Assembly (NCBI GenBank): GCA_951406725.2
Contig: OX597827.1
Coordinates: 83,018,001-83,082,000 of the forward strand
DNA from: Octopus vulgaris
Taxonomy: Eukaryota
Length of the DNA: 64,000 nucleotides
Direction: 5' to 3'
Shown: one piece after another, positions 56,270-58,096 of the stretch
Layout: each line of letters opens with the position of its first letter
Numbering within the stretch: the first letter of the stretch is position 1
The notes under the pieces: model-generated
Seen by the model: only the letters and a program-made list of their open reading frames with translations
Told to the model about the DNA's origin: nothing
The model's database searches: none
Made by a program: the position numbers and the translations under genes

Positions 56270-58096
56270 CTGCAGAAGAAAGAAAACAATTTCTCATTAA
56301 AAAATAAAAGAATTACTGAACAGGAATTTAATGTACAATACACATCGGACATACTATACAACATAGAGCATGCTGTAGAAAATCGAAGACATATGATAGA
56401 ACACGTCAGTCATACTGTCTGACATGTACTGTAGAGTATGTCTTCTGTAACTCTTGCCCTATGTGTGACATGTGTCCATACATGAAGCACTCTACTTGTC
56501 AGACATACTGTACAACACACACCAGACAGACTGCACAAGCACATCAGACATACTGTAGGACACATATCAAAGGCACTGTACAACACATCAGGCATAGTGT
56601 AGGACATACATTAGACATACTATATGACACATGAGTGATGTGTGAACAGTATTTCTGAAGTGTCATACAGTATATCTAACATTATGTGTGATGGGCATTT
56701 TTATGGTAGGTTTGAGGTGTTGTACAATATGTCTGTAATGTAGGACAGCCGTCAGACAGAGCAGGCCACATGTATGTCAGATAAATTACATTAATAATGT
56801 AATAGAATGGGTTGGTTCTGAGTTAGTAATCATGTAAAGTCACCAACATACCTGCATTTACTAAGATAGTAGCTTCAAGTAATAACAATTCTTCTCGATT
56901 AATACCAAACTGTAAGAGTTGCTCACTGACAGCTGCTACTTGTTCCAAGATCTGGGTCATTCCTAGAATCTCCCAGTGGTGCCTGAAACAAGAATGGAAA
57001 TAATCATCACAATGAAAATAGACAACTCAGACAAACATAGGAAACTTTTGAATAGTAAACTCCCCCCTCAAGTCCAATTCCATCTTTATCAACCTATCAT
57101 ACAGTGGTGGCCATAACCAATATAGAATTCAATACTGTGCTGCATTTTGTTGTCATTGTTCACAGGATGAAAAGGGGGCTGAATTTCTCTTCCAGTTGTT
57201 CATAGATTTCACAAATATGCGATATATCTGGATCAAACATTACATTCTCACTTTACCTTTCACTGTCAACCCACAATAAACATCACACACACACACACAC
57301 ACACAAACAAACACCTCACCACTAACCCTAAACAGACATCACAAGCCAGTAGGTGACAATATAAAGGAGGATGACTCATGCAAAGTAAGCTGTTTGAACT
57401 TGAATCCAATGGTTCATTACCTCGAACCACATCATCTCCCTCTCTCTCTCTCTCTCTCTTAAAGTTAGATATCTACTTCAGTGAGAAGAAGAAAGTCAGT
57501 AAGGTGTATCCAAGACAATCTAACATGCAATGGTAGATATGCCATCAAATAGGGAATGCTAAATTTACCCATTAAGCATTTGAGCTGACCATATCGGGGC
57601 CCAAAATGTTTCTGAATCTGGTTTAAAATGACCAGATCCAGCCTCTCACACCTGTCCTACAATGTCATTCTAAAAGTAAACAATCACATCACCAAATGTT
57701 GAATTAAAAGAGAACACAAGATTAATTCTAAACAATGTGAATAAATAAACATTACATCCAACAAAGTCATCTGAATGCTAGACTCAATTTTGAAACTGGA
57801 AACATTTTAAAGAACAAATAAGATACTTAATTTTCTAAGATTAGATTTGAGGCAAAGGCAAGCCGTTTCCCCTCATATTCCATGGAACGATATGCACAGT
57901 TAAGTAACACTAACTCCATCCAACAGCATTCTATAAGATGTACTTGGTCAGACAAAGATAAATCAGCATAACCTATTGAAAGAGAAACAAAAAAAAAAAA
58001 CTAAAGTTAGTCAAAGTAGGGAAAATAATTTTGTTATACTAATGATTATTAGAGGTTTATAAAGGTAGAGATCTTAGTTATATAAAGCAAGATATA

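Follow-up and report, generated by a model that had tools for sequence, protein, structure and literature searches.

A spliced TT-AG intron in the octopus estrogen-receptor gene, probably removed by the ordinary spliceosome

How is an intron that opens with TT excised correctly from a gene that exists in one copy? The question is raised by the estrogen-receptor (ER) gene on the minus strand of the 64,000-nt stretch of Octopus vulgaris DNA analysed here (the window, to which all positions refer unless stated). Its coding intron 6 (56983..57830, minus strand, 848 nt) starts TTAAGTAT and ends AG. Exon 6 closes with ATC TTA GAA AA at 57831, the intron opens with TTAAGTATCT at 57830, and its 3' end, TTTCAG at 56983, is followed by G CAC CAC TGG, the opening of exon 7 at 56982. 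Sliding of this junction is impossible and its position is unambiguous. The non-canonical 5' splice site (AAA/TTAAGTAT, 57823..57833, minus strand), cut between 57831 and 57830, combines T at +1 and A at -1 with a U2-like AAGT at +3 to +6 and a second GT at +5/+6. No GT lies within 57 nt upstream, the nearest exonic one corresponding to a cut 58 nt upstream. A dispersed repeat of very high copy number sits inside the intron (about 57600-57780), some 50 nt from the donor. A sequence-only reading of this DNA had already stated that the ER intron after the helix 4-6 exon begins with TT and not GT, which holds in the sequence and in both DNA and RNA contigs. It had also described +2 to +6 as a perfect U1 match; the real match is longer, covering +2 to +8 (TAAGTAT) plus -2.

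Eight coding exons were placed by tblastn with a transcript-derived relative, P0028. Exons 1 and 2 lie past the window end (in L049 and L048), and the other six are all on the minus strand of the window: exon 3 (63066..63179, 114 nt), containing the second zinc finger; exon 4 (61243..61355, 113 nt), the hinge; exon 5 (59653..59833, 181 nt), which RNA contigs connect to exon 6; exon 6 (57831..57972, 142 nt, phase 1 to phase 2), part of the ligand-binding domain and ending GAAAA; exon 7 (56852..56982, 131 nt), preceded by the pyrimidine-rich acceptor TTCTTGTTTCAG/G; and exon 8 (55974..56269), which runs up to the stop codon. Joined at TT, the eight exons encode 404 aa in a single open frame that agrees with P0028 in 380 of 408 aligned columns, and this bears out the phase-2 junction onto G CAC CAC TGG that had been predicted. 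Six of the seven coding introns are GT-AG and one is TT-AG. Exon 6 matches once in the 2.8-Gb genome, exon 7 likewise once at the protein level, and the octopus ER gene is single-copy. The best named relatives are mollusc ERs; full-length tests on P0028 gave the Pfam domains zf-C4 and Hormone_recep, with 4N1Y as its best solved-structure relative. An Atlas search yielded no more than the family. By sequence relationship, then, the gene is a mollusc estrogen receptor, with C4 zinc fingers and a ligand-binding domain predicted in common with the oyster ER (PDB 4N1Y) and other mollusc ERs.

Other features of the neighbourhood may be recorded here. The donor of ER intron 4 (61232-61245, minus strand, AAG/GTTTAC) is a weak GT site; it matches U1 at 5 of 11 positions, with -4.1 kcal/mol predicted for the duplex. 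The same intron contains, as judged by eye, an apparent decayed LINE-like reverse-transcriptase fragment (60050-61000, minus strand). On the plus strand, an AG acceptor is followed by a long open frame (1866-2791), probably the last exon of another gene, which has no Pfam match.

Whether the T is genuine was addressed with assembled contigs, which drop rare forms and variants, from eight of 24 listed sequencing runs, five DNA-like and three RNA-like. The sequence-only reading had suggested looking for C on the plus strand at 57830, and the contigs of all four DNA runs covering the site (X1, X2, X4 and X5, with three organism labels) keep T in the gene. The fifth DNA-like run, X17 (organism D), has no contig over exon 6, so that the site is uncovered. 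Contigs of X1 (57728-58092) and X2 (57721-58096), both organism A, show no differences; that of X5 (organism C, 57721-58000) shows one, at 57792; and X4 (organism B) covers the whole stretch with one inserted base at 57988, at a depth of only 4.75. X1 is possibly the assembly's own sample. The donor contig has reduced depth in X1 (33 vs 58.6) and X2 (15 vs 23.3), and given this lower contig depth a collapsed second allele with G is possible in these two runs. Depth across the donor is undiminished in X5, which has T (44.2 vs 43.7 nearby). Since organisms A, B and C are only a few bases apart in this region, the shared T shows recent common descent and not long conservation.

The site is used. 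In all three RNA-like runs (X8, X15 and X19, from studies P5, P7 and P9) the exons are joined exactly from 57831 to 56982, the junction that the sequence-only reading had proposed to look for. The RNA label of these runs is an automatic guess, and the exon-exon joins demonstrate spliced RNA. The joint in X8 skips 848 nt with ends CT..AA on the plus strand (TT..AG on the minus strand), without ambiguity and with 30 letters on its short side. X15 and X19 each yield one contig (1356 and 1352 nt) with no differences over 57831-57973, whose loose end at 57831 consists of the opening 30 bases of exon 7 and whose other loose end is the end of exon 5. With 646 nt of coding sequence upstream of the exon 6 match and about 427 downstream, each contig would be long enough to hold the complete coding sequence as a single unbranched piece. 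Among the assembled contigs of X15 and X19, none is listed with a retained or cryptic form at the donor. In X8, intron signal in the TT intron is 8.65 vs 28.3 spliced (about 23%), and in the next GT intron 3.9 vs 33.3 (about 10%), both being contig depths from one run and a poor measure. This roughly twofold signal relative to the neighbouring intron gives a weak hint of slower removal of the TT intron. Cover in X8 is missing near the intron 6 donor, and a gap of this kind is also present at the 5' end of the neighbouring intron. DNA and RNA contigs together thus support the view, one of three offered from sequence, that this is a natural TT-AG intron.

The sequence-only reading had predicted an in-frame stop upon intron retention (a TAA at +2 to +4) or use of the downstream GT, and our computation agrees, both products ending after residue 263 when intron 6 is retained or the GT at +5 is used. 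Skipping of exon 6 is predicted to end the protein after residue 221, and a cut one base upstream (the -1 register) after residue 268. The correct RNA junction and the 404-aa open frame speak against a splice-site null allele or pseudogene.

We then considered which components could recognise such a donor. Among 42 Rfam matches to U1, 40 start ATACTTACCT and two are degenerate; none has the base that would compensate +1 T, and a pattern scan found 40 with C at U1 position 8 and none with another base. A variant-U1 (suppressor) system was accordingly rejected, no U1 gene complementary to +1 T appearing in the Rfam matches or the pattern scan. U6 carries ACAGAGA in the 12 copies read out of 48 matches in all, and U5 loop 1 is the usual GCCTTTTAC in the 12 copies read out of 26. 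The genes themselves are grouped: more than 20 U1 genes form a cluster (G000 C18, 48.97-49.21 Mb; L006-L034), first on the plus and then on the minus strand and with small stem variants, U5 genes are clustered on C25, and U6 genes lie in tandem on C1. A U1-like locus, L045 (G000 C1:200366522-200366685), has a degenerate 5' end (ATTATTATTTGG) without complementarity to the TT donor, and is likely a pseudogene.

The TT donor makes 8 of 11 possible U1 matches, with an unbroken run from +2 to +8, while the best GT nearby makes 7 (141 nt upstream and 119 nt downstream scanned). Its predicted U1 duplex, at -4.6 kcal/mol, resembles that of the intron 4 GT donor (-4.1) and is weaker than those of the other five GT donors (-8.5 to -11.4); the weak predicted duplex means that helper proteins may be needed. 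T content at +9 to +68 is 0.45, inside the 0.27-0.53 range of the other six introns, and thus gives no sign of a U-rich downstream enhancer. Only weak folds are predicted at the donor, where a structured RNA or a duplex for editing had been considered.

Excision of intron 6 by the ordinary major spliceosome is likely, and the following sequence of events can be proposed. U1 would bind through +2 to +8, after which the U6 ACAGAGA would pair with +4 to +6, and the uridines of U5 loop 1 would pair with the terminal A run of exon 6, a contact inferred from PMC8283771. Together the U6 and U5 pairings could fix the cut without a G at +1, with no stronger GT competing nearby. The missing G at -1 would abolish the one-base-shifted GT register that lies behind imprecise human TT donors in reporters. 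Published work offers points of contact. The NN//GURAG class of donors relies on U6 and not on -1 G (PMC11732430), and the octopus donor fits this class except at +1. Extra pairs at +5 to +8 are reported in PMC8283771 to make up for an absent exon-end G. PMC6280755 found accurate +1 TT splicing to depend on suboptimal U1 complementarity together with a second GT at +5/+6; the octopus site has both.

Natural TT-AG introns are already known. The human ETV1 TT-AG junction is called constitutive in PMC4176328, whose supplement includes 10 U2-like TT-AG introns, nine with a direct repeat of at least two bases and one, DDX46, without; the repeat fits, and does not prove, an AG at the exon end. PMC6280755 ranks TT second after GC, reports that TT sites frequently have GT at -1, and leaves unexplained why +1 T is tolerated better than other substitutions. 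It also states that most human GT>TT changes disrupt splicing.

Set beside the human sites as they are given in PMC4176328 and PMC6280755, the octopus donor shares much with each. ETV1 and FBXO9 are likewise U2-type TT-AG introns with an A-rich exon end, and from +1 to +8 the FBXO9 intron, TTAAGTAT, has the very sequence of the octopus donor. However, both have AAG at -3 to -1, and hence a GT at -1/+1, whereas octopus has AAA and no such GT. In a reporter, both registers of FBXO9 were spliced (PMC6280755). A G at -1 would make the octopus site equal to the FBXO9 donor, cut in these two reporter registers, so that the A at -1 may help precision. The donor of DDX46 exon 19, which the same two papers describe as well supported by reads, also has A at -1 followed by TTAAGTA; it differs in having a GT 3 nt upstream after CAG, as one member of a pair of 5' splice sites (PMC6280755), while in octopus the exon lacks a GT within 57 nt and no other in-frame partner is seen in use. 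The sequence-only reading had instead compared the site with human FANCC c.165+1G>T. That analogy stands for the TTAAGTA intron start and for cleavage at TT (as described in PMC6280755), and fails at -1, where FANCC has G. FANCC c.165+1G>T is moreover described there as a disease mutation with low residual splicing, whereas the octopus T is apparently fixed and its correct product dominant, and ETV1, FBXO9 and DDX46 are the closer natural precedents. Judged on sequence, and for these four human sites (ETV1, FBXO9, DDX46 and FANCC), the octopus donor lacks the -1 G and the nearby upstream GT of the human cases. A literature search, mostly of open-access papers, gave no report of a TT donor in the ER of an octopus or other cephalopod, and an Octopus vulgaris ER cDNA sequence was not found in the searchable supplements of PMC3886901.

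The origin of the site can be approached through other species. Two bivalve-like ER loci from metagenomes have an intron at the same place and in the same phase, with donors AG/GTAAGT and CG/GTAAGC, so that both orthologues carry G/GT. The metagenome scan gave only these two loci, and protein searches found no exon-level cephalopod ER ORFs showing the -1 and +1 bases. Among 14 short stored proteins with the exon-end motif, 10 end in R and three in K exactly at the junction, the ending to be expected of a gene caller that reads on into a G/GT or A/GT donor and meets a stop. Several short, probably genomic vertebrate-ER-like ORFs that end LDR or LSR and then stop lend indirect support to the earlier statement that the intron position is common to vertebrate ER. 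The junction residue is Arg in most homologues and molluscs and Lys in the octopus gene. In the closest relative, cluster P0001, all six members have R, which implies G at -1 in its mRNA, against K and A at -1 in octopus. On these comparisons the octopus donor appears to depart at -1 as well as at +1 from the consensus of the outgroups. Insertion of TTAA ahead of an old GT at +5 was rejected as the origin: the outgroup GTAAGT aligns directly with +2 to +6 and the +5 site is weak, which makes a substitution the simpler explanation. The Arg of P0001, a cluster of octopod-like transcripts, could be genomic or result from A-to-I editing of the last exon base (57831). P0059, a gastropod-like genomic ORF, continues past the intron position with about 15 further conserved residues, which suggests loss or relocation of the intron in that lineage.

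Taken together, we think with good confidence that this is a real TT-AG intron in a single-copy ER gene, cut exactly at TT, likely by the ordinary spliceosome, and that the TT is likely a tolerated change from an ancestral GT and not a switch. An assembly consensus error, one of the options left by the sequence-only reading, draws on the general prior that odd donors often stem from single-base errors; the same T in independent DNA runs from other studies, including X2, X4 and X5, refutes it and leaves it a negligible chance. A loss-of-function allele, another of those options, is very unlikely because T recurs in four DNA samples and the correct splice is the sole form at the donor in the RNA contigs. 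In a related form, G and T would both exist and the T copy would splice poorly. The reduced depth of the X1 and X2 donor contigs would fit collapsed heterozygous sites somewhere in the contig, and the account in PMC6280755 of human GT>TT changes points the same way, but G is found in no run, T is found in 4/4 covering DNA runs, and X5 has T at full depth across the donor. We regard such a segregating, partly damaging allele as highly improbable.

Slightly less probable still is that unusual machinery is at work: the minor spliceosome, a U1 variant, or an A-to-I edit at -1 that restores a G-like base. GTATCTT at +5 loosely resembles a U12 donor motif. However, U12-type donors have an ATCCT-like motif at +3 to +7, and the used donor, TTAAGTATCT, has none there, by which a U12-type intron was rejected; the cut falls at TT, with U2-like bases at +3 to +8, and not at +5, and no U1 has an altered position 8. 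Cephalopods edit their RNA heavily from A to I, and the R of the relative implies a -1 G in mRNA in six of six cluster members. Yet the base at -1 is A in all three RNA contigs (no differences through 57831), so that editing of the -1 A is unnecessary, and the R of the relative may be genomic, given how many other residues differ in it. A further alternative is a TT donor selected as a throttle. Ligand-free activity is reported in PMC3886901 for the ligand-binding domains of mollusc ERs, that of Octopus vulgaris among them, and this gives a throttle on splicing its appeal: the output of a ligand-free receptor would track its abundance, and regulated retention, with a stop right after the junction, would lead to decay or to a 263-aa protein with the DNA-binding domain only. 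Early stops would follow from retention, from the +5 GT, from skipping and from the -1 register alike, the X8 intron signal is about twice that of the neighbouring intron, and the T is common to three organism labels. On the other hand, at the donor the spliced form alone is seen in X15 and X19, the X8 depths come from contigs of one run and are a poor measure, outgroups with the same type of receptor use GT, and the near identity of organisms A, B and C speaks for recent descent and not long conservation. We consider a throttle unlikely. With the same reserve, it can be imagined that the stand-alone TT donor is a tunable valve dosing an always-on receptor, and that the change from G to A at -1 was a second hit, eliminating the frameshifting register and giving the TT cut its precision.

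In summary, a tolerated change from GT, read by the ordinary spliceosome, is our preferred account of this intron. A natural TT donor without a GT at -1, giving correct mRNA from a single-copy gene, offers a clean test of whether the cut can be placed by the +2 to +8 helix and the U5 and U6 contacts alone, a question that matters for predicting leakiness among human +1G>T mutations. Aligners or gene models that accept only GT would break or mis-call the octopus ER gene. If retention of the intron were regulated, it would give the animal a means of controlling the receptor without a ligand switch.
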